This document shows, one piece after another, positions 15,368-52,944 of a stretch of 64,000 nt of DNA. Below the pieces are notes generated by a model, which saw only the letters and a list, made by a program, of their open reading frames with translations, made no database searches and was not told the DNA's origin. The stretch's first letter is position 1, and every line of letters starts with the position of its first letter. The position numbers were made by a program, and so were the translations under genes. The DNA is from Thermoanaerobaculia bacterium. Lineage in GTDB: Bacteria > Acidobacteriota > Thermoanaerobaculia > Multivoradales > UBA5704. The stretch is from the NCBI GenBank assembly GCA_044866775.1, contig JBIOUG010000174.1, positions 951 through 64,950 on the forward strand, given 5' to 3'.

Positions 15368-15451
15368 CTAGGCGCGAAAAGCTTTTCGCGCCGTATCCAT
15401 ATGGATTCTAGGAGCGCTGTCCGTCCCGCGCCCAGCGGGACGGGCTCCTAG
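15368..15451 (-). repeat. ~81-nt double-hairpin interspersed element, copy C (intergenic, opposite orientation)
   Basis: Perfect palindrome ggcgcgaaaagcttttcgcgcc, followed by the long imperfect hairpin ggagcgctgtccgtcccgc-gccca-gcgggacgggctcc. It is bounded by ctag. Confidence 0.9.
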
Positions 15452-15531
15452 AGGCGCGAAAAGCCTTCGCGCCGTATCCGGTAGATTCCAGGAGCGCTGT
15501 CCGTCCCGCGAACAGCGGGACGGGCTCCTAG
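15452..15531 (-). repeat. ~81-nt double-hairpin interspersed element, copy D (intergenic, tandem to copy C)
   Basis: It immediately follows copy C, with the same two hairpins and a few substitutions. Confidence 0.9.
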
Positions 15532-15564: not shown

Positions 15565-16866
15565 ATGAGGGCCCGGCGCGCGGCGATCGGCCTCGCCGCC
15601 CTGTTGCTGCTCGGCGCCGCCGGGTGGCTCCTGCTGCGCCGGCCGGCGCGGCCGCCGGTCGCGGCGCGGCTGTCGGTGGCGGGTGCGCTGGGCGGGCCGG
15701 CGGAGGCGGGGTTCGCGCGGGCGCTCGCGCCGCGCTCGTTCGCCTTTCCCGCCGACCACGGGCCGCACCCGGCGTTCCGCACCGAGTGGTGGTACTTCAC
15801 CGGCAACCTGGAGACCGAGGAGCCCGTCCCGCTCTTCGCGGGACGGACTGCGCTCCTCGGATCGATTGGATACGGCGCGAAAGCCTTCGCGCCTCGTCGG
15901 GGCGGGCGGCGGTTCGGGTACCAGCTCACCTTCTTCCGCAACGCCCTGGCGCCGCGGGCGGCGGCGCGCGCCTCGCGCTGGGCGGCGCGCCAGGTCTTCC
16001 TCGCGCACTTCGCGGTGACCGATCCGGGTGCCGGGCGCTTCCTCGCCTGCGAGCGCTTCCGCCGCGAGGCGCTGGGGCTGGCGGGCGCCCGCGCGGTTCC
16101 GTTTCGCGTCTGGCTGGATCGCTGGTCGGCGGCGTCGGCCGCACCGGCGGCGGCGGCCGTCGGTGACCAGACCTTCCCGCTGCGGCTGCGCGCCGCCGCC
16201 GAGGACGTCGCCCTCGATCTCACGCTCGCGAGCGGCAAGCCGCCGGTCCTCCAGGGCGAGCGCGGCCTCTCGCGCAAGGGGTCGGCCCCCGGGCAGGCCT
16301 CGTACTACTACTCCCTCACCCGCCTGCCCACCACCGGCCGGCTGCGCCTCGACGGCCGCACCTGGGCGGTGCGCGGCGCCTCGTGGATGGACCGCGAGTG
16401 GAGCACCAGCTCGCTCTCGCCGGGCCAGGTCGGGTGGGACTGGCTGGCGCTGCAGCTCGCCGACGGGCGCGAGCTGATGCTCTACCGGCTGCGCCTCCGC
16501 GGCGGCGGCGCGGATCCGGCGAGCGGCGGCGCCCTCGTGGCGCGCGACGGCACCGCCACGATCCTCGGGCTGGACGACGCCGCGGTCGAGGTCCTCGCCA
16601 CCTGGGAGAGCCCGGCCGGCGGCCGCTACCCGGCGCGCTGGCGGGTGCGGGTCCCGGCGGTCGGGCTGGACCTCGTCGTGCGGCCGCTGCTCGCCGATCA
16701 GGAGCATCGCGGTACCTTCCGCTACTGGGAAGGGGCGGTCGAGGCGGCCGGGACCTCACGCGGGACGCCGGCCGGCGGCCGCGGCTACGTCGAGCTGACG
16801 GGCTACGCCGACGGCGCGCCGGCGCCGGAGCGGCTCGGGGGTCGTCAAACAGCAAATTTCAGGTAG
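15565..16866 (+). CDS. AttH/CrtC-like (lipocalin-like hydratase family) protein, carries one in-frame repeat-element insertion
   Basis: N-terminal TM/signal segment. The family hallmark HPAFRTEWWYFTGNL ... FGYQLTFFR is interrupted by a 27-aa insert containing GAKAFAP. Confidence 0.75.
   Translation: MRARRAAIGLAALLLLGAAGWLLLRRPARPPVAARLSVAGALGGPAEAGFARALAPRSFAFPADHGPHPAFRTEWWYFTGNLETEEPVPLFAGRTALLGSIGYGAKAFAPRRGGRRFGYQLTFFRNALAPRAAARASRWAARQVFLAHFAVTDPGAGRFLACERFRREALGLAGARAVPFRVWLDRWSAASAAPAAAAVGDQTFPLRLRAAAEDVALDLTLASGKPPVLQGERGLSRKGSAPGQASYYYSLTRLPTTGRLRLDGRTWAVRGASWMDREWSTSSLSPGQVGWDWLALQLADGRELMLYRLRLRGGGADPASGGALVARDGTATILGLDDAAVEVLATWESPAGGRYPARWRVRVPAVGLDLVVRPLLADQEHRGTFRYWEGAVEAAGTSRGTPAGGRGYVELTGYADGAPAPERLGGRQTANFR
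15817..15896 (+). repeat. ~81-nt double-hairpin interspersed element, copy E (inside AttH-like CDS, in frame)
   Basis: gaggagcccgtcccgctcttcgcgggacggactgcgctcc...ggcgcgaaagccttcgcgcc. It encodes EEPVPLFAGRTALLGSIGYGAKAFAPR. Confidence 0.85.
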
Positions 16867-17071: not shown

Positions 17072-19069
<1,998 letters not shown>

Positions 19070-19074
19070 ACTTT

Positions 19075-19326
19075 ATGGAACCACGGGATGACGACGACGT
19101 GAACCGGCCCGGCTGGGTGGTGAGCGACGAGGGGAGCGCCGACAGCGCGCGTGACTTCGACCCGAAGCGGCCGGAGTGCGACGACGACGCGCCGGAGCCG
19201 CGCCGGGGGCCGGTGACGCACGGCACGCCTCTCGGGCCGGACGAGTACGCCCGGTTGAAGGAGAAGGCGAGGCGCGGGGGACCGGAAGACCGCGGCGGCC
19301 CCGCGCACCACGACCGCGAGCCATAG
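19075..19326 (+). CDS. Hypothetical small acidic protein (83 aa)
   Basis: The ATG lies 6 nt after the peptidase stop, and the sequence is non-repetitive (MEPRDDDDVNRPGWVVSDEG...). It has no recognisable motif. It is the in-frame tail of the spurious 16897..19326 ORF. Confidence 0.35.
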   Translation: MEPRDDDDVNRPGWVVSDEGSADSARDFDPKRPECDDDAPEPRRGPVTHGTPLGPDEYARLKEKARRGGPEDRGGPAHHDREP

Positions 19327-19349
19327 GATCTATTGGAACGGAGGGAGTC

Positions 19350-21116
19350 ATGGCGCAGCGCGCGAAGGCTTCGAGGGGAGGGCGGAAGACGACGGCGCGG
19401 AAGGGCGCGGCGGCGGCGGTCGCGCGGGCCCGCGGCGGCGCCAAGAGCGCGGCAGGCGCCCTCCGCGGCGCCGCCACCGGGCTCGCCGCCGAGGTCCTGG
19501 GCGACCTCCCGGGGCTGCAGAAGGTGCGGACCGTCCTCCGCGCCGGCAAGGCCGCGCTCGGCGCCGACTTCGATCCCGGGGCGATGGCGATGGCCGCCGC
19601 CGCCCTGGCCGGCCTCACCGAGTACGACCGCCCGCGCCCGGCGAAGACCCGCTTCCCGATCGACCTCGCCGCCTACGCCGCGCTCAAGGGCCAGGCGCCG
19701 GCGGCCCGGCGGCTGCGCGCGGCGCTCACCGCCACCGTCGCCGCCGACCGCGGCCGCAAGAAAGCCGGGACCGTCTCGGCGGCGGTGGTGGCCGGCGCCG
19801 TGGCGGCGCCGCTCGGCCCCGAGGTGGCGGCGGCTCCCGGCACCGTCGGCACCATCGCCGGCATCGCCGACACGCAGTGGTTCCCGCCCGACTGCACCCT
19901 CGCCGCCGGCCCGCAGCACGTCCTGGCGTCGGTCAACTCCTCGGTCGCCATCTTCCCCAAGACCGGCGGCAGCCCGGCGCTGCAGCGCACGCTGACCGCC
20001 TGGTTCTCGAACGTCATCTCGCAGGCCAAGATCTTCGATCCCAAGGCGCTCTACGACCAGCACGCCGGCCGCTGGGTGCTGGTGGCGGTGGCGCTGGGGA
20101 CGACCAGCAACACCTCGTTCTTCCTGCTCTCGGTGTCCAAGACCTCGGACCCGCTCGGCGAGTGGCGGAACTTCAAGCTCGACGCCACCAAGGACGGCAC
20201 GACGCAGACCCAGAACTGGGCCGACTACCCGGGGCTCGGCGTCGACGCGCAGGCGCTCTACCTGACCGCCAACATGTTCCGCTTCGACGGCGGCTTCCAG
20301 TACGCGAAGATCCGCATCATTCCCAAGGACGGCCCCTACTCGGGCGGCGCCGTCACCTTCCGCGACATCGTCAACCTGAAGAACGCCGAGGGCTCGACCG
20401 CCTTCACCCTCCAGCCCTGCCACACCTACGGCGCGCCGCAGGTGCAGTACTTCGTCAACTCGCTCTTCCCCTCGACCAGCGTCCCGACCCGCAATCTCCT
20501 CTCGCTCTGGTCGCTGACCAACCCGCTCGGCACGCCGGCGATCGCGCGGCGCAACATCGGCGTCACCAGCTACGGCCTGCCGCCCGACGCGACGCAGAAG
20601 GGCAGCTCGACGCTCGTCGACACCGGCGACGTGCGCGTGCTCAACGCCGTCTTCCGCGGTGGGTCGGTATGGTGCGCGCTGACCTCGCGCCACGACTGGG
20701 GGGACGGCAAGAACGTCGCCGTGGCGCACTGGTTCCAGATCAACCCGACCTCCGGCGCGAAGATCCAGGAAGGGTTCTTCGGCGTCACCGGCCGGCATTA
20801 CTACTACCCGGCCGTGATGCCCGACGGCAACGGCAACATGACGATGGTCTTCTCGCGCTCCGGCACGGCCGAGCACGTCAGCGCCCGCACCAGCGGCCGC
20901 CTGGCCGCCGATCCGCTGGGATCGCTGCAGGCGAGCGCCGACCTGCGCACCGGCGTCGCCCGCTACGTCCGCCTCGACGGCATGAGCCGCAACCGCTGGG
21001 GCGACTACGCCGGCATCGCCAACGACCCCACCGACAACCGCACGATCTGGTGCTACACCGGCTTCGCCGCGGCGGTCGACACCTGGGGGACGCACATCGG
21101 CGCGGCGCGGTTCTGA
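19350..21116 (+). CDS. Hypothetical protein: basic Ala-rich N-terminal ~180 aa plus beta-rich domain
   Basis: The ATG at 19350 is preceded by ggaacggaggga. The C-terminal ~400 aa have a globular, coding-like composition (WFPPDCTLAAGPQHVLASVN..., NRWGDYAGIANDP). The family was not recognised. Confidence 0.7.
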   Translation: MAQRAKASRGGRKTTARKGAAAAVARARGGAKSAAGALRGAATGLAAEVLGDLPGLQKVRTVLRAGKAALGADFDPGAMAMAAAALAGLTEYDRPRPAKTRFPIDLAAYAALKGQAPAARRLRAALTATVAADRGRKKAGTVSAAVVAGAVAAPLGPEVAAAPGTVGTIAGIADTQWFPPDCTLAAGPQHVLASVNSSVAIFPKTGGSPALQRTLTAWFSNVISQAKIFDPKALYDQHAGRWVLVAVALGTTSNTSFFLLSVSKTSDPLGEWRNFKLDATKDGTTQTQNWADYPGLGVDAQALYLTANMFRFDGGFQYAKIRIIPKDGPYSGGAVTFRDIVNLKNAEGSTAFTLQPCHTYGAPQVQYFVNSLFPSTSVPTRNLLSLWSLTNPLGTPAIARRNIGVTSYGLPPDATQKGSSTLVDTGDVRVLNAVFRGGSVWCALTSRHDWGDGKNVAVAHWFQINPTSGAKIQEGFFGVTGRHYYYPAVMPDGNGNMTMVFSRSGTAEHVSARTSGRLAADPLGSLQASADLRTGVARYVRLDGMSRNRWGDYAGIANDPTDNRTIWCYTGFAAAVDTWGTHIGAARF

Positions 21117-21169
21117 CGTACAGCCGGCAGCCGGCGCATTGCCCTTCCTGACCGAAGGACCTGCTCGCG

Positions 21170-21466
21170 AATCCGCCCGGTCGCTGGTAGAACCGGCCCC
21201 ATCCAAAAACGAACCAGCCCGATCCGAATGTGAACCAGCCCCAATCGGGACATAACCCGCCCGATCTGAATTCGAACCTGCCCGATTCAAATACGAACCT
21301 GCCCCAATCCAAGTGTGAACCCGCCTGATCCGAATACAAACCTGCCTGATCCAAATACGAACCAGTCCGATCCAAAGTCGAACCCGCCCAAACCGAATGC
21401 GAACCCGCCCGATTCAGATCAGAATCTGGCCGATTCAAGCCGGAACCGTCCGCTTCCGATCTCTAT
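21170..21466. repeat. Array of ~13-14 degenerate 21-bp (20-22) direct tandem repeats, consensus about GAACCnGCCCGATyCrAAtrc
   Basis: Units read directly, for example gaaccagcccgatccgaatgt, gaacctgcccgattcaaatac, gaacccgcctgatccgaataca, gaaccagtccgatccaaagtc, gaacccgcccaaaccgaatgc and gaacccgcccgattcagatca. The array is lower in GC than its surroundings. Confidence 0.85.
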
Positions 21467-21508
21467 CCGCCTGGTTCAGCTTTCGTTTGACCAGCTTCCG
21501 GTCGGACG

Positions 21509-21592
21509 CTAGCGATTCAGCAGCCCGAGCCGCAGCACCTTGGCGACGTGCAGCGCGCGGCGACCGGGCGCTGGGCGGTCCTGAGCGACAAC
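21509..21592. repeat. Decayed copy of the 3' end of the YdiJ-like oxidase gene (left direct repeat of the 4.3-kb island)
   Basis: The core agccgcagcaccttggcgacgtgcagcgcgcggcgaccgg (21528-21567) matches 25866-25905 with 2 mismatches in 40. The flanks are weaker. The minus-strand translation ...RRALHVAKVLRLGLLNR* compares with the gene end ...RRALHVAEVLRLALDG*. Confidence 0.8.
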
Positions 21593-21878
21593 GTTGCCCT
21601 GCGCCTCGGCGACTTCCCCCACCTCGCGTCCCTGCAGGCCGAGCTTGCGGCGCTGGTCGCCGAGGCCAAGCGCCTGCAGGCGCGGCAGAAGAGGCAGATC
21701 GGGGTGCTCCTCACCAAACGAACATCGCGCACGGATCGCGGCGCGCGGCCAGGAGATCAAGGAGCGCATCCAGGATCACCTGCGCGGCCACCTCGGCACC
21801 ACGAACAAGGAGCTGCTGCAGTTCGGCTTCAGGCCGCGGAGCGGCGGACCGCGCCGCAAGCGCCGCGCGCCGCGCTGA
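21548..21878 (+). pseudogene. Small conserved-hypothetical-like ORF, apparently frameshifted and 5'-truncated
   Basis: Frame 1 reads ...NVALRLGDFPHLASLQAELAALVAEAKRLQARQKRQIGVLLTKRT. Near 21715 the plausible continuation switches frame: EHRARIAARGQEIKERIQDHLRGHLGTTNKELLQFGFRPRSGGPRRKRRAPR*. The ORF's first codons lie inside the repeat 21509-21592. Confidence 0.35.
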
Positions 21879-22011
21879 GGAGCGCCGCCGGCAAGCCGCG
21901 GCACGTAGGGTCGCAGCCGGCACCAAGCACCCGCCCGCTTCCCCCGCGTGGGCCCGGGCCTTGCCCCGCGGCGCTGACCATGTCATCATTTGGTAAATCA
22001 CGGTCAATTCA

Positions 22012-25000
22012 ATGGGAACGACGACTGATCAGCCGTCGACGCACGTCGTCATCTCGGCCCCGAGCCAGTGGGGGCAGCAGGCCTGCGATCACCTCCTCCA
22101 TCGTGCAGTCGCTGATGGCGGCAGGGTAACCCTCATCGTCCCGCGCCGCGAGCGGAAACGCTTCGAGAGCTGGCCACCGACCATCCAGGAGTGGGAGGAC
22201 CAGCCGAGCCTCAAGGCGGTCCTCGAGCAGCGCCGCGCCTCGGGACGACCGATCGACTACGTCTACGACGATCAGTGCAACCACCTCGCCGCAGAATTGA
22301 TCTCGCAGCAGACTGCGCGCACGCATCTGACGGTGGGATACGTCACATCGAACGCCGACGAGCATTTCAACCACGCGGACTACCTCCTCCGCTTCTGTGA
22401 GCGGGTGCTGGTCGAGAAGCCGGTCTCACGGCTGTTCGACGAGATCCGTCCTGATGGCAAGTTTCCCCGCCTCGCCGCGAGCCTCCCGCCGGGGCGGTTC
22501 CTGGCGACCGCAGAGCACTTCCTGTTTCGGCCGGGAGTCACCAGGGCATGGCGGTCGGGTACCCTCCAGGGCTTTTTCGAGCGGCACCAGGAGTGTGATC
22601 TCCACTATGAGTTCCAGTTCGAGGAGCCGGAAGGCCGCGACGATCCCGCGCAGCGCCTCGGCGCCTACCAGGACGGGAGCATCCTCGACATCCTCGCCAC
22701 TCATGGTCTCGGGCCGGTGGCTTGCCTGCTGCTGCCGTTCGTCGCGGCGGCGCGAACCGATTTCTACACCGGCCTCGTGTGGCGACACGTTCGAAGCTGG
22801 CAGGCGAAGGACCCGCGTGGCGGGATGCTCAAGATCCCCGTGCTCGCCGAGACGGCGGCAGAGCTCCACGGCCGCCTGAGCCTGTCGCCGACACGCACGC
22901 TCCACCTCCACCTCCGCAGCGCCAAAGGGTGCCGCGAGCGCTTGCGTTTCTTCAGGTTCTACTGCCCCGCCGGGAAGTGTCGCAGTTGCTTACCAGGCGT
23001 GCGCGAGGACCGGGTGAGGGACCTCGCGGCTCGTCCTTCGCCGCAGGGGACGAGCGATCTTTTCGTCGCGGTGTCTCTGGGATCGGCCGGCTACACGGTT
23101 TTCGACTACAGCGACGCCACGAGTCTCGATCGCCTCTTCGTCGAGGTCGCTGGCGGGTATCTCTCGGACCGCCGAGGCAGCAGCGTCTCCGAGGCGGCGA
23201 ATGCGCAGGCCGCGATGCTCGACGCGCTCCTGCAGCCGGACTTCGGAGAGGAGGAGAAGCGACGCTTCGTGCCGGTCGAGACCGCCTGCCAGATCGTGCG
23301 CGCGGGCTTGCGGGCGCAGGGCGTCGCCTTCAACCGCGCGCGGGAGCCCTACTACGCCTGGGGCGAGGGACCGAAGTGGCCGAGCGAGCCGGCGAGCCAG
23401 ACGCGGAAGAGCAAGCTCGTACAGCTACACAGCCTGACGCCCGGTATCGACCAGCTCGCGGACGTCCTGCGGCTGCGGGGCGATCGGCGCAGACAGCGAC
23501 CCTACCACCGGGTCGTCACGGTGCTGGGCCCGGAAGGCGCGGGCAACAGCGACATCGCCCGCGCTTTGAGGGACTCAGAGCTCGCGGCCGAGAAGATCGA
23601 CATCCCGCGCGACGAGGATTGGGAGCAAGGCAGCTCGGCGGCGGCCGAGTCGCACCCGCCGAGCGGCTTCACGCTCGAGATGGTGCTGCGAAAGCTGGCG
23701 TCCAAGCTCCACCTCTCCCTGACGACCGCCCGCCGGCCGGCCGAAGAGCTGCCGGCGTATCTGCGGAAGGTCAGGCAGACGCTCACCGGCACGGATCTCC
23801 TCCTCTTCAACGGTGTGGACCGCCTGTCGGCCAATGACTGGCACGTGCTCGTGCGCATCCTCAACGAGCTTCCCGCCTCCTATCGGATGATCTTCGTCAC
23901 CAAGACCTGGGAGCGGGCGGGCGGCTTCGTCGTCCGCACCGAGGAGTTGATGAACTCGCTCCCCGGCCTGCTCGAAGGCACGCGGGCGTTACCCCTCGGG
24001 GATTACTTCCCCACTCCGGTCCCGGCCGGCGGCAGGCTCCGGAAGCAGTACGAGCGTCTATTCCGCGAGGAGGTCCTCCCGTTCAGCCGCGACAACCTCA
24101 CGGTACGCCAGCAGGTCGCCTCCTGGGTCTTCTACATGGCACTCCCTGCGGCGTTGAGAAAAGCGGGTCTGACGCTGCCCGCGAGCCACTGGTGGGATCT
24201 GCGGCCGTACCCCGCGCAACCTCAGTGGGACCTGGTGCGGGAGTTCATCCAGGACGAGATCGCCAGTCTGGACCTACCCAGCCCGCTGACGGCCAACCCC
24301 GAGGCGTTCCTGGATCGGGTCAGCCGCCTATGCCTCGCCATGGTGAGTGACGCCCAACGCCAGGCGGTTCGCAGCCTGGCGACTGTCTCGGGAGAGATTC
24401 CCAAGCGCCTGGTCGACGAGGTCTCGCCTGGATTGTTCGACGAGCTGCGCGCGCTGCGGCCGGCGCGGGCGCTGTTCGAGATCGTCACGGAGGACCGTGC
24501 GCTCCTCTTCCCGCGGGTGCGCAAAGCCGTGCTCGAAAGCGAACCCGAAGATCTCGACAAGCTGCGCACGGAGATCGAGCGGCGCCGCCTCCTCCTGTCG
24601 CTTCGCCGTCTCCGCCTCGCCGCCCCCGACCGGGCGGTGACACGCGCCCTCGGCGAACAGATGATCCGGCTCCTCTATGGCGCGTCGCTCGAGACCCTCA
24701 ACCTCGACGGAACTCCGTTCGAGTCGCTGTGCATGGAGCTGGTCGAAGAGCTAGAGACCTCAAGTGACCTGCACGGCGATCAAGCCGCCGGGTCTCTGAT
24801 CGAGCTGCTGACAGACGAAGCCACTCTCACCAGGACGAATCTCGGGCTTCTCGCACGAGCCCGATTGACGCGGCTCAAAGGGTGGCTGCTCCGGGGCGCC
24901 GCAGGGGTGGACCCGGCACAGTTGCAAAACGTGGCGAAGGTCCTCGATCACGCTTATGCGCTGGCGCAGCATTGCGTAGAGCGCAAGGACGGCCTCGAGC

Positions 25001-25935
25001 GAACGCCGGATCTGCGCCGTGCCGGCGCCGATCGGTGTCCGCTTCCCGGGGAGGTCGGTCGCGACGGGTCGAGCCCGAGCCTCGAGACGCTGGTGTTGAC
25101 GACCCAAGGTCGGGTGTTCGCTGGCATGGTGCAGAGCCGCTGGTGGCACCGCCTGCTCGGTCTCAAGACGACGCCCCACAGCAAGCCGCAGGATTGGGAG
25201 GCGTTCGTGACGCCGCGGCTCGAAGTCGGCACCGCCGGCCCCGGCGCCCTTAGAAGAACCCTTTGGGAGCTCTGCGAGGTCGGCATCGAGCAGCGAGGTC
25301 CGCGACCGCCCGAGCTGTCGCCGAAGGTTTTCGCCATCGCTCTACGCGCCCTCGCGCTCTATGTCGCGGGCCGCGAGACCGGGCCTGACCCGTTGCTCGC
25401 GGCGCGCCTCTGCCTGCGAGCGGCGAAAGAGAACGCGGGGAACGAGGACTGCCAAGCCCGCAACCTGATGGAGGCCGCTCTCTTCCTATCCGACGGAACC
25501 AAGCTCGCCGACGAATGGGACCTCGCCCCTGCAGGAACCAGCCTCACCAGAACGTACCTGGGCGACCGAGCGAAGGAGATCTTCGATCAGGAGCGTGATG
25601 TCCATCCCGGACTCGCCCCATATATCGACCTGCTCGATCTCATGGTCGAGTCAGGGTCCGCAGCGCAGCTCCTCGCCCATCGGAAAGAGCTCAAGCGTCT
25701 GGAGGCAGCGTTCGAGCGCACGGGTGATGGGTACTTCGGGCAGCTCGTTCATGACCTGAGAGCGGCGGCCAGCGGCTCGGCAAGACGATCCCGTCTTCCA
25801 GTCGGTTCTGGGATCACGGACCCGAAGCCAGAGGCGACCGCGAACGTCGTCAACCGTCCAGCGCCAGCCGCAGCACCTCGGCCACGTGCAGCGCGCGGCG
25901 ACCGGTCGCCTGGCGGATCTGCTCGCGGCAACTGA
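22012..25935 (+). CDS. 1307-aa multidomain protein: Gfo/Idh/MocA-like oxidoreductase-fold N-domain + STAND/NB-ARC-like NTPase with degenerate Walker A + long alpha-helical repeat C-terminal region
   Basis: The ATG at 22012 follows an AT-rich stretch. The EKP motif (RVLVEKPVSR, nt 22414-22422) sits in a Rossmann-like context. The P-loop-like VVTVLGPEGAGNSD (nt 23527-23550) has Asn where Lys is expected. The Walker-B-like DLLLFNGVD lies at nt 23794-23820. About 600 aa of helical sequence follow. Confidence 0.8.
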   Translation: MGTTTDQPSTHVVISAPSQWGQQACDHLLHRAVADGGRVTLIVPRRERKRFESWPPTIQEWEDQPSLKAVLEQRRASGRPIDYVYDDQCNHLAAELISQQTARTHLTVGYVTSNADEHFNHADYLLRFCERVLVEKPVSRLFDEIRPDGKFPRLAASLPPGRFLATAEHFLFRPGVTRAWRSGTLQGFFERHQECDLHYEFQFEEPEGRDDPAQRLGAYQDGSILDILATHGLGPVACLLLPFVAAARTDFYTGLVWRHVRSWQAKDPRGGMLKIPVLAETAAELHGRLSLSPTRTLHLHLRSAKGCRERLRFFRFYCPAGKCRSCLPGVREDRVRDLAARPSPQGTSDLFVAVSLGSAGYTVFDYSDATSLDRLFVEVAGGYLSDRRGSSVSEAANAQAAMLDALLQPDFGEEEKRRFVPVETACQIVRAGLRAQGVAFNRAREPYYAWGEGPKWPSEPASQTRKSKLVQLHSLTPGIDQLADVLRLRGDRRRQRPYHRVVTVLGPEGAGNSDIARALRDSELAAEKIDIPRDEDWEQGSSAAAESHPPSGFTLEMVLRKLASKLHLSLTTARRPAEELPAYLRKVRQTLTGTDLLLFNGVDRLSANDWHVLVRILNELPASYRMIFVTKTWERAGGFVVRTEELMNSLPGLLEGTRALPLGDYFPTPVPAGGRLRKQYERLFREEVLPFSRDNLTVRQQVASWVFYMALPAALRKAGLTLPASHWWDLRPYPAQPQWDLVREFIQDEIASLDLPSPLTANPEAFLDRVSRLCLAMVSDAQRQAVRSLATVSGEIPKRLVDEVSPGLFDELRALRPARALFEIVTEDRALLFPRVRKAVLESEPEDLDKLRTEIERRRLLLSLRRLRLAAPDRAVTRALGEQMIRLLYGASLETLNLDGTPFESLCMELVEELETSSDLHGDQAAGSLIELLTDEATLTRTNLGLLARARLTRLKGWLLRGAAGVDPAQLQNVAKVLDHAYALAQHCVERKDGLERTPDLRRAGADRCPLPGEVGRDGSSPSLETLVLTTQGRVFAGMVQSRWWHRLLGLKTTPHSKPQDWEAFVTPRLEVGTAGPGALRRTLWELCEVGIEQRGPRPPELSPKVFAIALRALALYVAGRETGPDPLLAARLCLRAAKENAGNEDCQARNLMEAALFLSDGTKLADEWDLAPAGTSLTRTYLGDRAKEIFDQERDVHPGLAPYIDLLDLMVESGSAAQLLAHRKELKRLEAAFERTGDGYFGQLVHDLRAAASGSARRSRLPVGSGITDPKPEATANVVNRPAPAAAPRPRAARGDRSPGGSARGN
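25850..25932. repeat. Right direct repeat of the island (functional 3' end of the YdiJ-like gene)
   Basis: Partner of 21509-21592, at an offset of 4338 nt. Confidence 0.8.
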
Positions 25936-28741
25936 AGCCGTCGGCGACGAGAAGGGTGTCCGCCGCGGCCGTCCGGACGGCCGGCAGGAGCACCCGCTCG
26001 CCGCAGCGCTGCGACACCTCGTAGCGCTCCCCCGCCTCGAAGCCGAAGGAGCCGGCCATGCCGCAGCAGCCGGCGTCGAGAACCTCGACGGCGAGGCCGA
26101 GGCGCGAGAGGACTTCCTCTTCGGTCTTCGTTCCCCCGAGGACCGCCTTCTGGTGGCAATGGCCGTGGACCACCGCCCGCCGCCGGTTGAGCGCGCCGCC
26201 GCCGCTTTCCCCGCCCTGATCGCGGGCGAGAAGATCAGGTAGGAGGAGGGTCTGCGCCGCCAGCCGCCGCGCGTCCTCGTCGCCGGCGAGGAGGTCGACC
26301 AGCTCGTCGCGGAAGACCGCGGCGCAGCTCGGCTCGAGGACGACGACTGGGGTGCCGGCGCGGACCTCGTCGCGTAGGGCTGCGACGACGCGCTCGAGCA
26401 GGCGCTTCGCCAGGCGGAGCATGCCGTAGTCGTAGAGCGGGCGGCCGCAGCAGAGGACCCGCGGCGGGACCGCGACCTCGTACCCGTGCGCCTCCAGCAC
26501 CTCCACCGCCGCCTGGCCGACCTCCGGGTGGAAGTGATTGGTGAACGTGTCCGGGAAGAGGAGCACGCGACGGCGGGCTGCCCTGCCTGTTCCTTTCTCC
26601 CCCCGCCCGGCCCACCACCCGCGGAACGTACGCCGCGCGAATTCCGGCGCCTCCCGCTCCGGCGCCACCCCCGCCGCCGCCTTCGCCACCGCCCGCAGCC
26701 CGCGCGCGTGGGTCAGGAAATTCGCCAGCCGCGGCGCCCGCGCCGCCGCCCTTGCCCACCAGTGGATCAGCCCGAAGGCGTACGCCGACCTGGGCCGCAG
26801 CCGCGGCCCCGCGTAGTAGTGGGCGAGAAACTCCGCCTTGTAGCTCGCCATGTCGACCCCGACCGGGCACTCGCTCTTGCACGCCTTGCAGGCCAGGCAG
26901 AGGTCCAGCGACTCCTTGACGTGACCGTCGCGCCAGCCGCCCGCCACCACCTCGCCCTGGAGCATCTCGAAGAGCATCCGCGCCCGCCCGCGCGTCGAGT
27001 GCAGCTCCTCGCCGGTCGCCATGTAGCTCGGGCACATGGTGCCGGCGTTGGTCTTGCGGCACTCCCCCACCCCGACGCAGCGCAGCGTGGTGCGGGCGAA
27101 GCTGCCGTCGTCGGCGGCGAAGGCGAAGTGGGTGGAGAGGCGCGGCGGCGCCCAGGAGGTGCCGAGGCGGAGGTTCTCGTCGAGGCGGTAGGGATCGACG
27201 AGCTTGCCCGGGTTCATCCGCCCCTCGGGGTCCCAGATCGCCTTGAACTCGCGGAACGCCCCGACCAGCTCGGGGCCGAACATCTTCCCCAGCAGCTCAC
27301 CGCGCGACTGGCCGTCGCCGTGCTCGCCCGACAGGGACCCGCCGTAGCGCAGCACCAGGTCGGCGGCTTCTTCGACGAAGGCGCGGAAGGTGCGGATGCC
27401 GCCGGCGGTCTCGAGGTCGAAGTCGATCCGGGTGTGGACGCACCCCTCGCCGAAGTGCCCGTAGAGCGTGCAGCCGTAGCCGAAGCGCTCGAGGAGCGCG
27501 CGCAGCTCGCGCAGGTAGCCGCCGAGGACGTTGGGATGGACGGCCGCGTCCTCCCACCCTTCCCAGGCGTCGGGAAAGCCGGGCACGCGCGCGGTGGCGC
27601 CGAGCGCCGCCTCGCGCACCTTCCAGACCGCCCGCGCCTCCTGCCGGTCGGTGAACAGCGTGCACGCCGGCCCGCCGCCCTCGCGGAGCGCCGCCGCCAG
27701 CCGCTCGGCGCGCTCCGCGGCCTCCTCGCGCGTCGCGCCGCCCATCTCGACCAGCAGCCACCCGCGGCCGTCGGGCAGGAGCTTGATGTTCTCCGGATGG
27801 AGCCGCTTCCGCTGCATCGCCTCGACCAGCACGTCGTCGATCCCCTCGAGCCCGATCGGACCGTGCTCGAGGACCGCCGGCACCGCGTCGGCGGCGGCGT
27901 AGACGTCCGGGTAGCCGAGGACCGCGAGGACGCGGTGCGGCGGGCTCGGCACCAGCCGCAGCAGCGCCTCGAGGACGGTGACGCAGGTCCCTTCGGAGCC
28001 CACCAGCGCCCGCGCCAGGTGGCAGCCGTTCTCGGGCAGCAGCGCCGGCAGGTTGTAGCCCGAGACGCAGCGCGGGATGTCGGGATAGCGGGTGCGGATC
28101 AGGTCGGCGTAGCGGTCGCGGAGCGCGCGCAGCGCGCCGTAGATCGCGCCGCGCCGCCCGCCGCCGGCGACGATCGCCGCCAGCTCCTCCTCGCTCGTCG
28201 CCCCGACCCGCAGCCGCGTGCCGTCGTAGGTCAGGACCTCCAGCTCCTCGACGTTGGCGTCGGTCTTCCCCGACATCAGCGAATGGACGCCGCACGAGTT
28301 GTTGCCGATCATGCCGCCGAGCGTGCAGTGGTTGTGGGTGGCCGGGTCGGGGCCGAAGGTGAGCTGGTGCCGCTCGGCGGCGTCGCGCAGGGTGTCGAGC
28401 ACCAGGCCGGGCTCGACGGCGGCGCGCCGCGCCTCCGGGTCGAGCGCCCGGATGGCGTGCAGGTGCTTGGTAAAGTCGAGGACGACCGCGACGTTGCAGC
28501 ACTGGCCGGCGAGGCTGGTGCCGCCGCCGCGCGACAAGACCGGTGCGCCGTGCTCGCGGCAGACGGCGACGGTCGCCTCGACGTCCGCGACGGTGCGCGG
28601 GACGACGACGCCGATCGGCACCTGACGGTAGTTGGAGGCGTCGGTCGCGTAGAGGGCGCGGCTGCCGGCGTCGAAGCGCACCTCGCCTTCGACGCGCCGC
28701 CGCAGCGCGGCGGCGAGCCCCGCCGCGAGCAGATCGGTCAA
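25850..28741 (-). CDS. FAD-binding oxidase fused to Fe-S/CCG-domain (YdiJ / GlcD-GlcF fusion-like, putative 2-hydroxyacid dehydrogenase)
   Basis: FAD-binding PCMH-type N-terminal half (SRGGGTSLAGQ). Ferredoxin-type CLACKACKSECP. CCG-type motifs CCGRPLY and CCGMAGSFG. The start is taken at TTG 28741, preceded by gaaggag; the ATG at 28819 is the alternative. Confidence 0.9.
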   Translation of the reverse strand: MTDLLAAGLAAALRRRVEGEVRFDAGSRALYATDASNYRQVPIGVVVPRTVADVEATVAVCREHGAPVLSRGGGTSLAGQCCNVAVVLDFTKHLHAIRALDPEARRAAVEPGLVLDTLRDAAERHQLTFGPDPATHNHCTLGGMIGNNSCGVHSLMSGKTDANVEELEVLTYDGTRLRVGATSEEELAAIVAGGGRRGAIYGALRALRDRYADLIRTRYPDIPRCVSGYNLPALLPENGCHLARALVGSEGTCVTVLEALLRLVPSPPHRVLAVLGYPDVYAAADAVPAVLEHGPIGLEGIDDVLVEAMQRKRLHPENIKLLPDGRGWLLVEMGGATREEAAERAERLAAALREGGGPACTLFTDRQEARAVWKVREAALGATARVPGFPDAWEGWEDAAVHPNVLGGYLRELRALLERFGYGCTLYGHFGEGCVHTRIDFDLETAGGIRTFRAFVEEAADLVLRYGGSLSGEHGDGQSRGELLGKMFGPELVGAFREFKAIWDPEGRMNPGKLVDPYRLDENLRLGTSWAPPRLSTHFAFAADDGSFARTTLRCVGVGECRKTNAGTMCPSYMATGEELHSTRGRARMLFEMLQGEVVAGGWRDGHVKESLDLCLACKACKSECPVGVDMASYKAEFLAHYYAGPRLRPRSAYAFGLIHWWARAAARAPRLANFLTHARGLRAVAKAAAGVAPEREAPEFARRTFRGWWAGRGEKGTGRAARRRVLLFPDTFTNHFHPEVGQAAVEVLEAHGYEVAVPPRVLCCGRPLYDYGMLRLAKRLLERVVAALRDEVRAGTPVVVLEPSCAAVFRDELVDLLAGDEDARRLAAQTLLLPDLLARDQGGESGGGALNRRRAVVHGHCHQKAVLGGTKTEEEVLSRLGLAVEVLDAGCCGMAGSFGFEAGERYEVSQRCGERVLLPAVRTAAADTLLVADGFSCREQIRQATGRRALHVAEVLRLALDG

Positions 28742-28800
28742 ACCAGCTCCTTCACCTCGTCGGCGAGCACGGTAGGCGCGATCTTGCCACGGTTCGGCTC
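28742..28800. repeat. Displaced copy of the last ~19 codons of the PoxB-like gene, abutting the YdiJ-like start codon
   Basis: By manual alignment, 55/59 nt are identical to 31433-31491. The minus-strand reading is ...EPNRGKIAPTVLADEVKELV*, with the stop TGA overlapping the TTG start of the oxidase gene (TTGA). Confidence 0.85.
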
Positions 28801-28900
28801 CGGCGCCCGCCACCCGCAAGTGGCACTCTACTTGCTGCTCTGTTCGAGCTGAAAGTTCGGCTCCTCGCGGCCGATCTCACCACACAAAGGAGGGAACACG

Positions 28901-30250
28901 ATGCGACCGCAGTTGAAGGCGTGGCCCTTCACACTCTTGGTCCTCGCGCTGCTCGGCGCTTGTCTGCCAGGGCCGAAGACGGTCAAGACGAACCCTGCCG
29001 TCGACGCCGAGCAGACGCGGATCGCCTACGACGCCCGCACCGAACACTACGCCCAGGAGCTGTTCGAGGAAGGCCGCGAGGTGTTTCGCTACGACAGCTT
29101 CGGCAGCGAGGACTTCTGGGGCGGGCAGCTCCGCCTGCACGAGGCGATCCTCGGTGAGAAGCAAGGCGGCGTCGGGCCCGGCCTGACGCCGAAGCAGGCG
29201 CTCGAGGCCGGGCTCAAGGTCGACGTCGGCAAGCTCCCCAAAATCCTGTCCGAGGCGATCCAGCAGACGGCCGTGAGCCTGGAGAACCCGGAGACCACCG
29301 TGGCGCTGCTGCGCGCCCACTCGGTCGTGGGGGTCAAGGGAGTCTTCGAAGGCGAGAAGATGGTGAGCATCGGGCTCACCTGCGCCTTCTGCCATTCGAC
29401 AGTCGACGACTCCTTCGCCAAGGGGATCGGCGCCCGACTGGACGGCTGGCCCAACCGCGACTTGAACGTCGGCGCGGTCGTCGCGCTCTCCCCGACCGTG
29501 AAGCCGTTCGCCGACCTGCTCGGCGTCAGCGAGGCCGACGTCCGGAAGGTGCTCCTGAGCTGGGGGCCCGGAAAGTACGACGCCGAGCTCAACCAAGACG
29601 GCAAGGCGTTCCGGCCGGACGGCAAGTCGGCGGCCACGGTCCTGCCCGCGGCCTTCGGGCTGGCCGGGGTCAACCTCCATACCTACACCGGATGGGGCTC
29701 GGTCACCCACTGGAACGCCTACGTCGCCAACACGCAGATGCACGGCAAGGGGACCTTCTTCGACCCGCGGCTCGACGACCGCAAGCAGTTCCCGGTCGCC
29801 GCCAAGGCGGGGCACGGCAACATCCGCAACACTCCCGACCTGGTGACGCCGAAGCTGGCGGCGCTGCACTACTACCAGCTCTCGCTCCCCGCCCCCGAGC
29901 CGCCGGCGGGCTCCTTCGACAAGGAGGCGGCAGGCCGGGGCAAACTCCTCTTCGAGGGCAAGGCGCAGTGCGCCACCTGCCACGTGCCGCCGCTCTTCGT
30001 CGAGCCCGGCTGGCCGATGCACACCGCCCAGGAGCTGGGGATCGACGACTTCCAGGCCAGTCGCTCGCCCGACAAGCGCTACCGCACGACACCGCTCCGC
30101 GGCCTCTTCGTGCGGGCGAAGGGAGGCTTCTACCACGACGGGCGCTTCGCGGACTACGCCGCGGTCGTGGACCATTACGACCGGCACCGCCGGCTGCGGC
30201 TCACCGCCGAGGAGAAGCGGGATCTCGTCGAGTTCCTGAAGTCGCTCTAG
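28901..30250 (+). CDS. Putative di-haem c-type cytochrome lipoprotein
   Basis: Lipoprotein-type signal peptide (LLGAC) and two CxxCH motifs (CAFCH, CATCH). The family was not resolved further. Confidence 0.7.
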   Translation: MRPQLKAWPFTLLVLALLGACLPGPKTVKTNPAVDAEQTRIAYDARTEHYAQELFEEGREVFRYDSFGSEDFWGGQLRLHEAILGEKQGGVGPGLTPKQALEAGLKVDVGKLPKILSEAIQQTAVSLENPETTVALLRAHSVVGVKGVFEGEKMVSIGLTCAFCHSTVDDSFAKGIGARLDGWPNRDLNVGAVVALSPTVKPFADLLGVSEADVRKVLLSWGPGKYDAELNQDGKAFRPDGKSAATVLPAAFGLAGVNLHTYTGWGSVTHWNAYVANTQMHGKGTFFDPRLDDRKQFPVAAKAGHGNIRNTPDLVTPKLAALHYYQLSLPAPEPPAGSFDKEAAGRGKLLFEGKAQCATCHVPPLFVEPGWPMHTAQELGIDDFQASRSPDKRYRTTPLRGLFVRAKGGFYHDGRFADYAAVVDHYDRHRRLRLTAEEKRDLVEFLKSL

Positions 30251-31407
30251 AAGACGACCGCGAACCGCTCCGCGTCCTGGCGCTTGAAGTCAATGCCCAG
30301 GCCGGGGCGGGAGAGGTCCGGCCGGAGCGCTCCGCTGCGCGGCGCGAGGGCGCCGTCGAAGAGCAGCCGCTCGATGCGCACATGGTCGTGGAACCACTCG
30401 ACGTGGACGGCCGGCGTCATCGCGCAGCAGGGGTGGGCGTGGATCGACGGCGCGGTGTGCGCCGAGAGCGGCAACGGCGCCGCGGCGCAGAGCGCGCCGA
30501 CGCGCAGGAACTCGGTGATGCCGGCGCAGCGCGTGGCGTCGGCTTGCAGCACGTCGACTGCGCCGGCGTCCAGCATGCGGCGGAAGTAGACGAGGTCGTA
30601 GCCGTACTCGCCGGCGGCGATCGCCATCCCGGCCGGCGCGCGGTCGCGGAGGTGGCGCAGCCCTTCGAGGTCGTCCGAGGAGACCGGCTCCTCGAACCAG
30701 GTGACGCCGCAGTCGGCGACGGTCTCGGCGAAGGCGAGCGCCTGCTTGCGGGTGTAGGCGCCGTTGGCGTCGACGAACAGCTCGGCGCCGGGCCCGATCG
30801 CCCGCCGTGCCGCGCGCACCCGCTCGGGGTCCGCCGCCGAATCGCGCCCGACCTTCATCTTGAGGCGAGAGATCCCGTCGGCTACCCAGGCGCCGAGCTG
30901 CTCCTGGAGCTGCGCGAGCGAGTACGAGGTGAAGCCGCCGCTGCCGTAGACCGGAATTTCGTCGCGCACCGCACCGAGGAGAGTGACGAGCGGCAGCCCG
31001 AGGAGCTTGGCCTTGAGGTCCCAGAGCGCGACGTCGACGGCGGCGATGGCGGTCGAGGCGATCCCCGGCCGCCCGAGGTTGCGCACCGCCGCCACCATCG
31101 CCTCCCAGGCCGCCGGCACCGCCATCGCGTCCACTCCCGCGACCACCGCCGCCAGCCGGTCGCGGACGAGCCGCGCGGTCGCCGTGGCGGCGTAGGTGAA
31201 GCCGAGGCCGCGCTCCCCCGCCGCCCGCACCTCGACCAGCACCAGGGTGGTCGAGTCCCACGCGAGAGTGCCGTCGGACTCGGGGAAGTCGGTCGGGACG
31301 GTGTAGGCGGCGACGTCGACCCGCTCGATCGGCGCCGCGGCACCTCGCCGCAGCGCCGCCGGTGAGAGCGGCTCCACGGCCGCCGCCGGCGGCGCGACCT
31401 CGCTCAT
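30247..31407 (-). CDS. Enolase-superfamily enzyme (mandelate racemase/muconate lactonizing enzyme-like)
   Basis: The N-terminal capping domain plus barrel motifs FVDANGAY, VTWFEEPV and AAGEYGY are typical of the MR/MLE family. Confidence 0.85.
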   Translation of the reverse strand: MSEVAPPAAAVEPLSPAALRRGAAAPIERVDVAAYTVPTDFPESDGTLAWDSTTLVLVEVRAAGERGLGFTYAATATARLVRDRLAAVVAGVDAMAVPAAWEAMVAAVRNLGRPGIASTAIAAVDVALWDLKAKLLGLPLVTLLGAVRDEIPVYGSGGFTSYSLAQLQEQLGAWVADGISRLKMKVGRDSAADPERVRAARRAIGPGAELFVDANGAYTRKQALAFAETVADCGVTWFEEPVSSDDLEGLRHLRDRAPAGMAIAAGEYGYDLVYFRRMLDAGAVDVLQADATRCAGITEFLRVGALCAAAPLPLSAHTAPSIHAHPCCAMTPAVHVEWFHDHVRIERLLFDGALAPRSGALRPDLSRPGLGIDFKRQDAERFAVVF

Positions 31408-31428
31408 CGGCGAGACTCCCAGCTCAAT

Positions 31429-33177
31429 CTACACCAGCTCCTTGACCTTGTCGGCGAGCACGGTGAGCGCGATCTTGCCACGGTTCGGCTCGCCCTTCGC
31501 CAGCGCCTCGGCGAGCTTCGCCGCCTGCTTGGCGGAGACCTTCGGCGGCTCGGGCGGCTCGAAGGGATCGACCACCGCCTCGACCAGCACCGGGCCCGGG
31601 GTCGCCAGGGCCTCGGCGAGGACGTCGCCGCAGGCCTGCGGGTCGTCGACCGAGAAGCCGCTGCCGCCGCAGGCGCGGGCGACGCCGGCGAAGTCGATCG
31701 GCTGCAGCTCGCAGCCGTACTCGGGATTGCCGAGGAAGACCATCTGCTCCCACTTGATCATGCCGAGCGTGTTGTTCTTGATCACCACCACCTTGATCGG
31801 CAGCTCGTACTTGACGGCGGTCGCGAACTCCGCCATCAGCATCGAGAAGGCGCCGTCGCCGACGAAGGCGACGCACTGCCGGCCGGGGTGCGCGATCTGG
31901 GCGGCGATCGTGTAGGGGACGCCGTTGCCCATCGAGGCGAGGGTGCCCGAGAGCGAGAACATCTGTCCGCGCCGGGCGCGGATCTGCCGCGCGAACCAGG
32001 TGGCGACGGTGCCCGAGTCGCAGGAGACGATGGCGTCGTCGGCCAGGAGCTTGCCGAGCTCCCAGGCCACGACCTGCGGCTTCATCGGCTTGCCCGGCCG
32101 CGTGCCGCGCTCCTCCATCAGCTTCCACCAGTCGGCCATCCGCTCCTGCGCCCTGGCGATGAAGCTGCGGTCCTCGTTGCGCACCAGGAGCGGCAGCAGC
32201 CGCTGCAGCGTCGCCTTGGCGTCGCCCACCAGCCCCACCTCGACCGGGTAGCGCAGGCCGATGCGCAGCGGGTCGACGTCGATCTGCGCTCCCCGCGCCT
32301 GCCCCGGCGCGGGCAGGAACTCCAGGTACGGGAAGGAGGAGCCGGCGATGAGCAGCGTGTCGCACTCCTCCATCGCCTCCTGCGACGGCCGGGTGCCGAG
32401 GAGGCCGATGCCGCCCGTCGTGTACGGGCTGTCATCCGGCACCGCCGCCTTGCCGAGGAGCGCCTTGACGATCGGCGCCCCGAGCCGCTCGGCGAGCTGC
32501 TCGAGCTCCTCGCCGGCGCCGAGCGCGCCGCGCCCGGCCAGGATGACGATCTTCCGGCCGCCGTTGAGCAGCTCGGCGGCGCGGTAGAGGTCCTCCTCGG
32601 GCGGCAGCGTCACGCGGCGGGCGAAGACGCCGGACTCTTTGCCGGCGGCGGCGCGCGGGGACGGCTCGCCGTCCTCCTGCTCCTGCAGGTCGACCGGGAA
32701 GTTGATGTGCGCGACGCCGCGGTAGGCGAGCGCCGCGCGGCAGGCCAGGTGCGCCACCTTCTCGACGTGCGAGACGCCCATGACGCGGGTGTTGTAGACC
32801 GCCACGTCCGCGAACACCCGGTCGAGGTCGACGTCCTGCTGCGCGAAGGTGTCGATGAGGTCGTGGTAGTGGTGGCCGGTGATGGCGAGCACCGGCTGGC
32901 CGTCGAGCTTGGCGTCGTAGAGGCCGTTGAGCAGATGGATGCCGCCCGGCCCCGAGGTGGCGAGACAGACGCCGAGCCTGCCCGTGTACTTGGCGTAGCC
33001 GCAGGCCATGAAGGCCGCCGCCTCCTCGTGCCGCACCTGCACGAAGCGGATCTCCTCCCGCCGCCGCCGCAGCGCCTCCATGATGCCGTTGATGCCGTCC
33101 CCGGGCAGCCCGAAGACGACCTCCACGCCCCAGCCGTGGATGGTGTCGATCAGGATGTCGGCCGCGGTCCGTCCCAT
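31429..33177 (-). CDS. Thiamine-diphosphate enzyme, pyruvate oxidase/pyruvate dehydrogenase (quinone)-like
   Basis: GLPGDGINGI and GPGGIHLLNGLYDA, plus the TPP-binding motif GDGAFSMLM...NN. The ATG at 33177 is preceded by aaaggaggcg. Confidence 0.9.
   Translation of the reverse strand: MGRTAADILIDTIHGWGVEVVFGLPGDGINGIMEALRRRREEIRFVQVRHEEAAAFMACGYAKYTGRLGVCLATSGPGGIHLLNGLYDAKLDGQPVLAITGHHYHDLIDTFAQQDVDLDRVFADVAVYNTRVMGVSHVEKVAHLACRAALAYRGVAHINFPVDLQEQEDGEPSPRAAAGKESGVFARRVTLPPEEDLYRAAELLNGGRKIVILAGRGALGAGEELEQLAERLGAPIVKALLGKAAVPDDSPYTTGGIGLLGTRPSQEAMEECDTLLIAGSSFPYLEFLPAPGQARGAQIDVDPLRIGLRYPVEVGLVGDAKATLQRLLPLLVRNEDRSFIARAQERMADWWKLMEERGTRPGKPMKPQVVAWELGKLLADDAIVSCDSGTVATWFARQIRARRGQMFSLSGTLASMGNGVPYTIAAQIAHPGRQCVAFVGDGAFSMLMAEFATAVKYELPIKVVVIKNNTLGMIKWEQMVFLGNPEYGCELQPIDFAGVARACGGSGFSVDDPQACGDVLAEALATPGPVLVEAVVDPFEPPEPPKVSAKQAAKLAEALAKGEPNRGKIALTVLADKVKELV
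31433..31491. repeat. Functional 3' end of the PoxB-like gene; partner of the repeat 28742-28800
   Basis: See 28742-28800. The offset is 2691 nt. Confidence 0.85.
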
Positions 33178-46355: not shown

Positions 46356-46661
46356 CTATCTGGCGAAAGCCTCGCGGCGCTGCCGCTGCCGATCGTCGTC
46401 GAGCAGATCGAGTTCTTCACCATCGGCGGCGGCATCCTCGCCGCCTCGCTCACCTTCGTCTTCACCGATTAGAACGGCCAGCCGACGGACGTCAACGGCG
46501 ACAACTACCTCGACACGGCCTCAAACGAGGTCTACTACAACGACACCTTCGGCGATCCGAACGACAACCGCCCTGCTCGCCTCGAGAGCCGGTGGGAACG
46601 TGGTACGATCCCGGCAACCGCTGGCCCACATCAACGACCGCTTCATCCGGTGGAGGTGCTC

Positions 46662-49634: not shown

Positions 49635-49637
49635 GCC

Positions 49638-51737: not shown

Positions 51738-51764
51738 TGGAGCGCCGCCGGCCTGGCCGCCGGC

Positions 51765-52853: not shown

Positions 52854-52928
52854 GGGCGGATTCGAACCGCCGTATAAGGGTTTTGCAGACCCTCGCCTTA
52901 CCACTTGGCTACGTCGCCTGAAGGGAGT
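52854..52928 (-). tRNA. tRNA-Cys (GCA)
   Basis: Manual fold of ggcgacgtagccaagtggtaaggcgagggtCTGCAAAaccct...ggcggttcgaatccgcccgtcgcctcca: 7-bp acceptor, anticodon loop ctGCAaa, TPsiC loop ttcgaat, encoded CCA. Confidence 0.9.
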
Positions 52929-52944
52929 GAGATCTGGAGCGGGA

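Follow-up and report, generated by a model that had tools for sequence, protein, structure and literature searches.

In Escherichia coli, e14 and phage 21 integrate into the icd gene and leave the pseudogene fragment icdC, as summarized in a passage of PMC13626634 that cites Hill et al. 1989. For type VI secretion system (T6SS) and Rhs loci, a passage of PMC5361080 (citing de Vries & Wackernagel 2002; Prudhomme et al. 2002; Meier & Wackernagel 2003) proposes homology-facilitated illegitimate recombination as the source of displaced effector 3' ends and orphan modules. Here we describe a related arrangement in a 64-kb window (the whole stretch of DNA that was analyzed, 64,000 nucleotides), a chromosomal stretch of a high-G+C soil-metagenome contig, in which the 3' end of a YdiJ-like oxidase gene is present on both sides of an island of about 4.3 kb that carries one large cargo gene. 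The locus allows a gene addition in an uncultivated soil bacterium to be viewed at base resolution, both before and after it took place. With about even confidence, we favor the explanation that linear DNA from another, related genome was added by recombination and not by an element's own integrase.

The two copies of the oxidase gene end lie 4338 nucleotides (nt) apart in the same orientation and are identical at 54 of 63 positions (21521-21583 versus 25859-25921), with 38/40 identities in the best 40-nt window (21528-21567) and an identical run of 22 nt (21546-21567). When the window was compared with itself by BLAST, this pair scored 69.4 bits, whereas the best non-self match in 20 codon-block shuffles of the window, which served as the control for chance, reached at most 58.4 bits (median about 41), and a chance repeat is thereby ruled out. 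An assembly chimera is likewise ruled out, as an independent Logan contig from run X1 (X1 and X2 being the runs of the source sample) covers 18609-26078 with zero differences and crosses both junctions at even depth. An earlier note on this DNA, made from the sequence alone, had raised both possibilities, and its description of the layout largely stands: the spacing and orientation are as it gave them, only a frameshifted small open reading frame (ORF) and the 1307-codon ORF lie between the copies, and the latter, which the note called STAND-like, has no stop before the junction and overlaps the oxidase gene in antisense by 86 nt. Its claim of an oxidase-end copy of about 84 nt that includes a stop needs to be narrowed. 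The repeat and its 38/40 core are real, but true oxidase homology extends over only about 59 nt, the sequence derived from the small gene begins at about 21566, and the stop of the distal copy, although present, is not homologous to that of the functional copy. The minus-strand reading of the distal copy is ..PGRRALHVAKVLRLGLLNR (also given as ..GRRALHVAKVLRLGLLNR) up to its stop, and that of the oxidase C terminus is ..TGRRALHVAEVLRLALDG (also given as ..GRRALHVAEVLRLALDG). There is no tRNA at the insertion site, and promoter/terminator and Rfam scans of the junctions found nothing. The coordinates of all features are collected in Table 1.

Table 1. Features of the oxidase and thiamine pyrophosphate (TPP)-enzyme loci, in window coordinates (aa, amino acids)
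Feature	Position	Strand	Remarks
646-aa gene	19176-21116	+	
21-bp repeat array, ~12 copies (GAACCNGCCCGATCCRAAT)	21190-21447	.	Tandem Repeats Finder (TRF); native flank between the 646-aa gene and the original oxidase end
Displaced native oxidase 3' end (relic)	21509-21567	-	stop 21509-21511, last 3 codons, 47-nt repeated segment 21521-21567
Small basic protein pseudogene	21566-21878	+	lacks start and about first 10 codons; +1 frameshift near 21716
Left junction zone	21568-21583	.	similar to the antisense oxidase end (11/16) as well as to the small gene's 5' part
Cargo gene, 1307 codons	22012-25935	+	family-conserved part to 25758; last 58 codons (25759-25932) an unshared tail; final 86 nt (25850-25935, stop included) antisense to oxidase
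Substitute oxidase tail (Asp-Gly-stop)	25850-25858	-	from inserted DNA; right junction between 25858 and 25859
Direct repeat, functional copy	25859-25921	-	within the live oxidase gene
YdiJ-like FAD/Fe-S oxidase gene	25850-28741	-	963 aa, TTG start 28739-28741; Pfam FAD_binding_4, FAD-oxidase_C, Fer4 (4Fe-4S), CCG; collection gene call also 963 aa
Second relic, displaced native TPP-enzyme gene 3' end	28742-28800	-	stop (28738-28740) overlaps oxidase start codon
Second insert	28801-31432	.	between the copies of the TPP-enzyme gene end; Pfam, NCBIfam
Unknown secreted gene, MauG-like C-terminal part	28901-30250	+	
MR/MLE enolase-family gene	30247-31407	-	
Substitute TPP gene end	31433-31491		repeated segment; last Val codon ends at 31432, TAG stop 31429-31431

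Among named genomes, those closest to the oxidase and its neighbors are metagenome-assembled genomes (MAGs) of Thermoanaerobaculia (Acidobacteriota), with 73-82% protein identity, so that the taxonomy of the contig can be guessed only to class level. The gene content of the window includes secA, IMP dehydrogenase, cysS, def, thiE, and alanine dehydrogenase. A scan of a genome collection with the oxidase returned relatives of at most 68% identity and no empty site. The empty site was found in a close relative, here coded organism A, which is present in the public runs X4-X7 and shares 95.6-97.7% identity with the window in its S9 peptidase, 646-aa, and TPP-enzyme genes. Contig depth of organism A falls to near zero over 21408-25815, and a 2013-nt contig from X4 matches 19803-21114 and then 21257-21440, continues with 81 unmatched nt, and resumes at 25859-26172, inside the oxidase gene. 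In the window, 80 nt lie between position 21440 in the array and 21521, where the distal copy starts; because this spacing from the array matches the 81 nt of organism A, the distal copy occupies the exact position of the oxidase end in organism A. The same order without the island is seen more distantly in locus L084, which holds the nearest homologue of the oxidase (75% identical; 646-aa protein, 79%) and in which the oxidase gene is followed by an array of 21/42-nt period and a convergent 646-aa gene. In the window, the array gave 9 pattern matches against 0.08 expected; it is present but diverged in the empty-site contig of organism A, and that of L084 is analogous and occupies the same position. 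An empty-site joint was not seen in the source-sample runs X1 and X2.

Our results show that the ancestral order was the 646-aa gene, then the 21-bp array, then the oxidase gene facing both, and the empty sites of organism A and L084 identify 21509-21567 as the original gene end and roughly 21568-25858, about 4.3 kb, as extra DNA in this genome. The insertion into the oxidase 3' end that the earlier note had suspected thus has its empty-site allele. Within the oxidase gene itself, we observed a hypervariable stretch of 73 nt (26570-26642) in which organism A differs at about 22 positions and by several indels, against about 4.5% difference in the flanks.

Comparison with organism A also settles which gene end is the old one. 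The relic is what the oxidase gene originally ended in, with the register kept: its stop (CTA on the plus strand) lies 12 nt before the repeat, just as in the intact gene of organism A. In organism A, the 30 nt before 25859, read on the gene strand, give ..CTG CCG ACT CGG TAG (..L-PTR and stop). The relic has CTG CTG AAT CGC TAG, and the two tails share the stop and the distance from stop to repeat and agree at 12 of 15 bases. The live copy, in contrast, reads CTG GAC GGT TGA, and the alignment with organism A stops exactly at 25859. Within the shared 47 nt, the relic is identical to 25859-25905 at 43 positions; at the four that differ, organism A agrees every time with the functional copy, which in turn differs from organism A at two sites, both private to organism A. 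As the relic is the odd one out at all four sites, it appears to have decayed, while the repeated segment of the functional copy looks native, and the new part of the live oxidase is confined to its last two codons and stop. The motif ..AL(R)(D/E)G is the usual C terminus of this oxidase family, some members of which end there, and the PTR/LNR tail of organism A and the relic is the unusual one. Because the substitute tail matches the family-typical motif, it most likely came from another oxidase allele. This fits the idea of a replacement 3' end put forward in the earlier note, the distal copy being the native end that was displaced and the functional gene having ..ALDG as its substitute tail, and it argues against a plain target-site duplication.

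At the island's opposite end, the changeover from oxidase to small-gene sequence lies where both sequences happen to be similar, which points to an illegitimate joint at microhomology; from a codon-by-codon comparison with locus L093, we read the zone 21568-21583 as a patch of chance similarity at that joint. The sole homologue found for the small pseudogene is P0166, a protein of 135 aa whose gene is intact in L093 and to which the pseudogene is 57% identical over 97% of its length. Nucleotide alignment with L093 and three-frame translation support both the truncation and the frameshift. As a separate observation, arrays of 21/42-nt period with a related unit (GAACyCGyCCCG..) occur in the window (21190-21447), in L093 (1423-1683), and in L084 (5534-5952); in L093, the array immediately precedes the intact small gene, and in the window only the oxidase stub separates the array from the dead small gene.

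The oxidase gene is not the only one in the window with such a scar. Immediately upstream of it lies another copy of the final 20 codons of the TPP-enzyme gene (28742-28800 versus 31433-31491; 55 of 59 identities), and the two copies enclose a second insert. In a contig of organism A, 28727 is joined to 31433 and 2705 nt (28728-31432) are skipped; the TPP gene there abuts the oxidase start and ends in the TGA stop that the stub also has. At the live TPP end, the encoded protein is unchanged in length, but the stop is TAG, and the last Val codon is GTG where organism A has GTC; a second Val codon also seems to differ, at a site so close to the edge of the aligned contig piece that it is not listed. 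A TPP gene followed by an MR/MLE gene is the usual order in many other genomes, including the Thermoanaerobaculia MAG L083. Since the substitute end is followed by the MR/MLE gene in normal synteny, the TPP insert looks like a contiguous piece of a related genome that starts inside its TPP gene. Two further observations touch this boundary. The mechanically called oxidase ORF (TTG at 28819, 989 aa) includes 26 codons of the TPP relic (28742-28819). In L084, TPP fragments (1133-1266 and about 2457-2500) flank an unrelated 328-aa gene upstream of the oxidase, and these fragments indicate that the TPP/oxidase boundary has been struck by insertions more than once.

Comparable duplications exist at other genes. 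In L092, the last 55 codons of a homologue of the 646-aa gene are duplicated (223-387 and 2736-2901; 91% identical) on either side of a gene for an S8 peptidase and an ORF of 88 aa, and the copies differ by a serine AGC/TCC switch and by conservative replacements, as two live alleles would. Locus L089 is 98.7% identical to the L092 gene up to the stop and entirely different downstream. At the oxidase, TPP, and L092 genes alike, the match of the functional gene to the comparison genome (organism A for the first two, L089 for L092) ends at the stop or within a few codons of it. A looser case is secA, where a 177-nt piece of the 3' region (1823-1999) is repeated 780 nt downstream at 2602-2773 with 87.5% identity; this duplicate follows two short ORFs that gave no Pfam match, is fused in frame to one of them, and does not reach the secA stop. 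A reading of these ORFs as toxin-antitoxin-like had no Pfam support and was rejected. No recombinase was found in the secA, L092, or L084 fragment cases, and the 81 oxidase loci compared in other genomes include none with a duplicated oxidase end.

The cargo stands out as foreign in composition, since the G+C content at third codon positions (GC3) of the large gene is 0.83 (1038/1251) against 0.94-0.98 in native genes (0.935-0.98 across six neighboring genes). Its homologues end 6-17 residues past a conserved YFxQLxxDM motif, while in the window this motif ends at 25758 and 58 codons follow; as the ORF has no stop before the junction, this tail is by all appearances read-through and not a conserved part of the protein. 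A word-indexed search returned 24 homologues of the large protein, the closest 56% identical, and its N-terminal domain matched 32 clusters in 1.84 billion representatives. For residues 1-460, an AlphaFold2 (AF2) model with a pLDDT of 87 matched glucose-6-phosphate dehydrogenases (G6PD) in Foldseek (E 2e-16, TM 0.58). VLVEKP is present, its EKP being the only sequence trace of G6PD, and AEHFLFRPG stands at the substrate motif; the GxxGxxA fingerprint was not found, nor was any sequence-level match to G6PD. The C-terminal half is all-helical, with helical repeats, and its model (pLDDT 83) matched MalT, Cdc6/Orc1, and plant NB-ARC proteins at E values of 6e-4 to 5e-3, with TM-scores that are low because the query has several domains. 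The Walker A motif reads GPEGAGNSD, with Asn in place of Lys in almost all family members examined, so that the canonical GxxxxGK[ST] is absent, while a Walker B-like LLLFNGVDRL is present. Pfam gave no match above cut-off (AAA_22 at 19.4 bits, cut-off 27), PADLOC none for the large protein or two of its homologues (E<=0.1), and PHROGs and NCBIfam nothing for the large protein. The cargo protein may act as a sensor or regulator of the nucleotide-switch type, its N-terminal module resembling a sugar-phosphate dehydrogenase.

The homologous genes are solitary and stand in varied contexts at the six loci compared, which have no conserved neighbor, and the homologue loci do not share the region upstream of the large gene in the window; the two closest lie beside toxin-antitoxin genes, and no flanking repeats were found around two of the homologues (L081 and L082). 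Distant homologues in L087 (5052-10041) and L088 (6001-11835) stand immediately beside 6-phosphogluconate-dehydrogenase-like genes, and that of L087 is also near transaldolase-PGI and aldose epimerase genes, which is suggestive given the G6PD-like N-terminal fold. In the source sample, a low-depth X2 contig joins 22668 to 24057, an out-of-frame deletion of 1388 nt in the large gene; some cells may carry a broken gene, or the joint may be an artifact at depth 3.

How could these scars have arisen? In the explanation that we favor, the incoming fragment would have carried, in this order, a donor oxidase 3' end, the convergent gene for the G6PD-fold/STAND protein, and part of the small gene. The donor oxidase end would have paired with the resident oxidase gene as homologous anchor. 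At the fragment's far end, an illegitimate joint would have formed where a short stretch happens to be similar, 47-60 nt upstream of the resident stop. What remained would have been a brief duplicated segment, an oxidase gene made whole again, and the native end, displaced and by now decaying. We favor this model because of the family-typical substitute tail, the exact TPP end, the syntenic neighbor, the cut small gene, the several scarred genes, and the lack of a recombinase. For the illegitimate joint, we found the 11/16 similar patch at 21568-21583 and the removal of about the first 10 codons of the small gene. For the homologous joint, the substitute tails are of oxidase and TPP type and TPP synteny is kept, while neither a donor locus nor a clear donor tract in the oxidase was found.

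Several observations weigh against this model. An arrangement in which an oxidase gene converges with the large gene was not found among the six homologue loci, whose neighbors differ. The functional repeat copy is native at all four informative sites, which would place the crossover at the very end of the gene or would mean that mismatch repair restored the letters of the recipient. A longer donor tract in the oxidase is not evident, as the nearest relative is the same along almost the whole protein; oxidase GC3 does drop past codon 650, but relatives show a milder version of the same fall, and most of the 9% divergence over the final 860 nt sits in the hypervariable patch. Moreover, two or three joints lying 47-165 nt before the stop are more regular than random illegitimate joining would give, although such spacing could result if longer duplications are unstable and shorter ones go unseen. 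Finally, the model would need a route for linear DNA into the cell, such as natural competence.

Alternatively, the island may be a remnant or cis-mobilizable cassette of an integrative element whose tyrosine-type recombinase lies elsewhere or has been lost, with the 47-60-nt repeat as attL/attR and an attP that carried an oxidase-like end, which we consider possible but on the unlikely side. Direct repeats with a 22-nt identical core, a substitute gene end together with a displaced native end, the clean empty site in organism A, and the foreign composition of the cargo all speak for it, and the icd/icdC layout left by e14, as summarized in the passage of PMC13626634, is its textbook parallel. 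Against it, a Pfam scan found no recombinase or transposase in the island, as the earlier note had stated, or among the roughly 45 ORFs over the 64 kb, and the left end of the island cuts a small gene that is intact elsewhere. A crossover in the core predicts the native tail-side 25 nt in the relic, yet four relic sites differ from organism A, which later decay could explain. The oxidase end is not a recurrent target in the 81 genomes, the similar scars at the TPP-enzyme gene, the 646-aa gene, and, loosely, secA would each need a site specificity of their own, and the TPP insert starts with the usual neighbor of the TPP gene in normal synteny. The earlier note had inferred an element that integrated into the gene 3' end while carrying a replacement end. 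The insertion, the substitute end, and the displaced native end hold, whereas a discrete, self-integrating element is not supported, given the missing recombinase, the cut small gene, the lack of target reuse, the TPP synteny, and a substitution confined to two codons and the stop; the "element" is probably imported DNA.

A target-site duplication seems improbable to us. In this scenario, the final 60 nt of the oxidase gene would have suffered a staggered break, or a template switch during replication, and an unrelated fragment would have been captured there by end joining; the copies would initially have been identical, and the new stop would have arisen fortuitously. It would require no recombinase, both ends of the island look like the arbitrary breakpoints that it implies, and the functional copy equals organism A wherever the relic differs. 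Differences between the copies also fall equally on the three codon positions (5/5/5), the pattern that decay of a single copy would give, although synonymous and nonsynonymous counts have no power to separate the models. The Asp-Gly-stop tail, however, matches the usual tail of the family and not random sequence, the TPP insert would have to supply the last base of the final codon, an immediate stop, and the normal neighbor by chance, and the L092 copies resemble two functional alleles.

The recombinase-free scars with substitute ends at the oxidase, TPP, and 646-aa genes, along with the looser secA duplicate, also lead us to speculate about a dedicated, unrecognized mechanism of this lineage that adds single-gene cassettes at gene 3' ends, the cassette here being a new NLR-like sensor with a G6PD-fold enzyme or ligand-binding N-terminal module and an inactive-looking P-loop; we hold this combination to be quite improbable. 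Hardly any credence is given to the reverse polarity, an old island lost in relatives by recombination between the repeats with no recent insertion here, since, even though such a deletion would regenerate the structure of organism A exactly (gene body, repeat, native tail) and the X2 contig already shows an internal deletion in the large gene, it requires independent losses in organism A and L084, leaves the cargo GC3 still far from that of the genome, and shifts the insertion further back without replacing it.

Elsewhere in the window, a family of repeats of about 80 nt, in both orientations and 83-89% identical, lies in and around two paralogous ABC-transporter genes (13631-13711, 14273-14362, 15370-15531, and 15808-15895). 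The block 46470-52990 holds three genes of lower GC3 (0.82-0.88), encoding a TonB-dependent receptor, a sulfatase-TPR protein, and a beta-lactamase-family protein, and ends at tRNA-Cys and tRNA-Gly genes (52844-53009); no integrase was seen in it, and it may be an old tRNA-side island. A repeat between 52935 and 63683 amounts to a pair of tRNA-Gly genes.

Our findings suggest that additive recombination with short 3'-end duplications may be a routine route of gene gain in this lineage. The relics it leaves have practical consequences, as they inflate ORF calls (by 26 codons of TPP relic at the oxidase, and by a false tail of 58 codons at the cargo ORF) and can be mistaken for attachment sites. 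The cargo gene, for its part, adds a very rare protein family (about 30 clusters in 1.8 billion representatives) with an unreported domain combination.

Set beside the described systems, the insertion is an ordinary, already known kind of scar, unusually well documented since both alleles are available. As with e14 in icd, the insertion lies in the 3' end of an enzyme gene, the insert supplies a substitute end, the original end persists as a fragment on the far side, and loss of the insert restores the original gene. Unlike e14, which has its own integrase and excises on SOS induction, the island in the window is without a recombinase, has a truncated gene at one end, and replaces only two codons and the stop. 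The likeness to the T6SS/Rhs case is that foreign DNA would have been placed beside a conserved gene through one homologous and one illegitimate joint, that a recombinase is unnecessary, and that the old 3' end is shifted downstream and retained as an orphan fragment. In our case, however, what was displaced is the ordinary end of a housekeeping-type enzyme gene and not a variable toxin domain, the duplication spans only 47-165 nt, and the event is known from sequence alone, with the donor not found.

The most original part of the finding is the cargo protein. To our knowledge, a G6PD-fold N-terminal module in a STAND/NLR-like protein is not known among described systems. In its predicted architecture, the cargo protein resembles the bacterial STAND/NLR-like NTPases (of MalT, Avs, and NB-ARC type), with a central P-loop NTPase carrying a helical arm, C-terminal helical repeats, and an N-terminal accessory domain, and its genes are likewise solitary, patchily distributed, and sometimes found beside toxin-antitoxin genes. 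It departs from these NTPases in the replacement of the Walker A Lys by Asn in almost all examined members of the cargo family and in an N-terminal module with the fold of G6PD.

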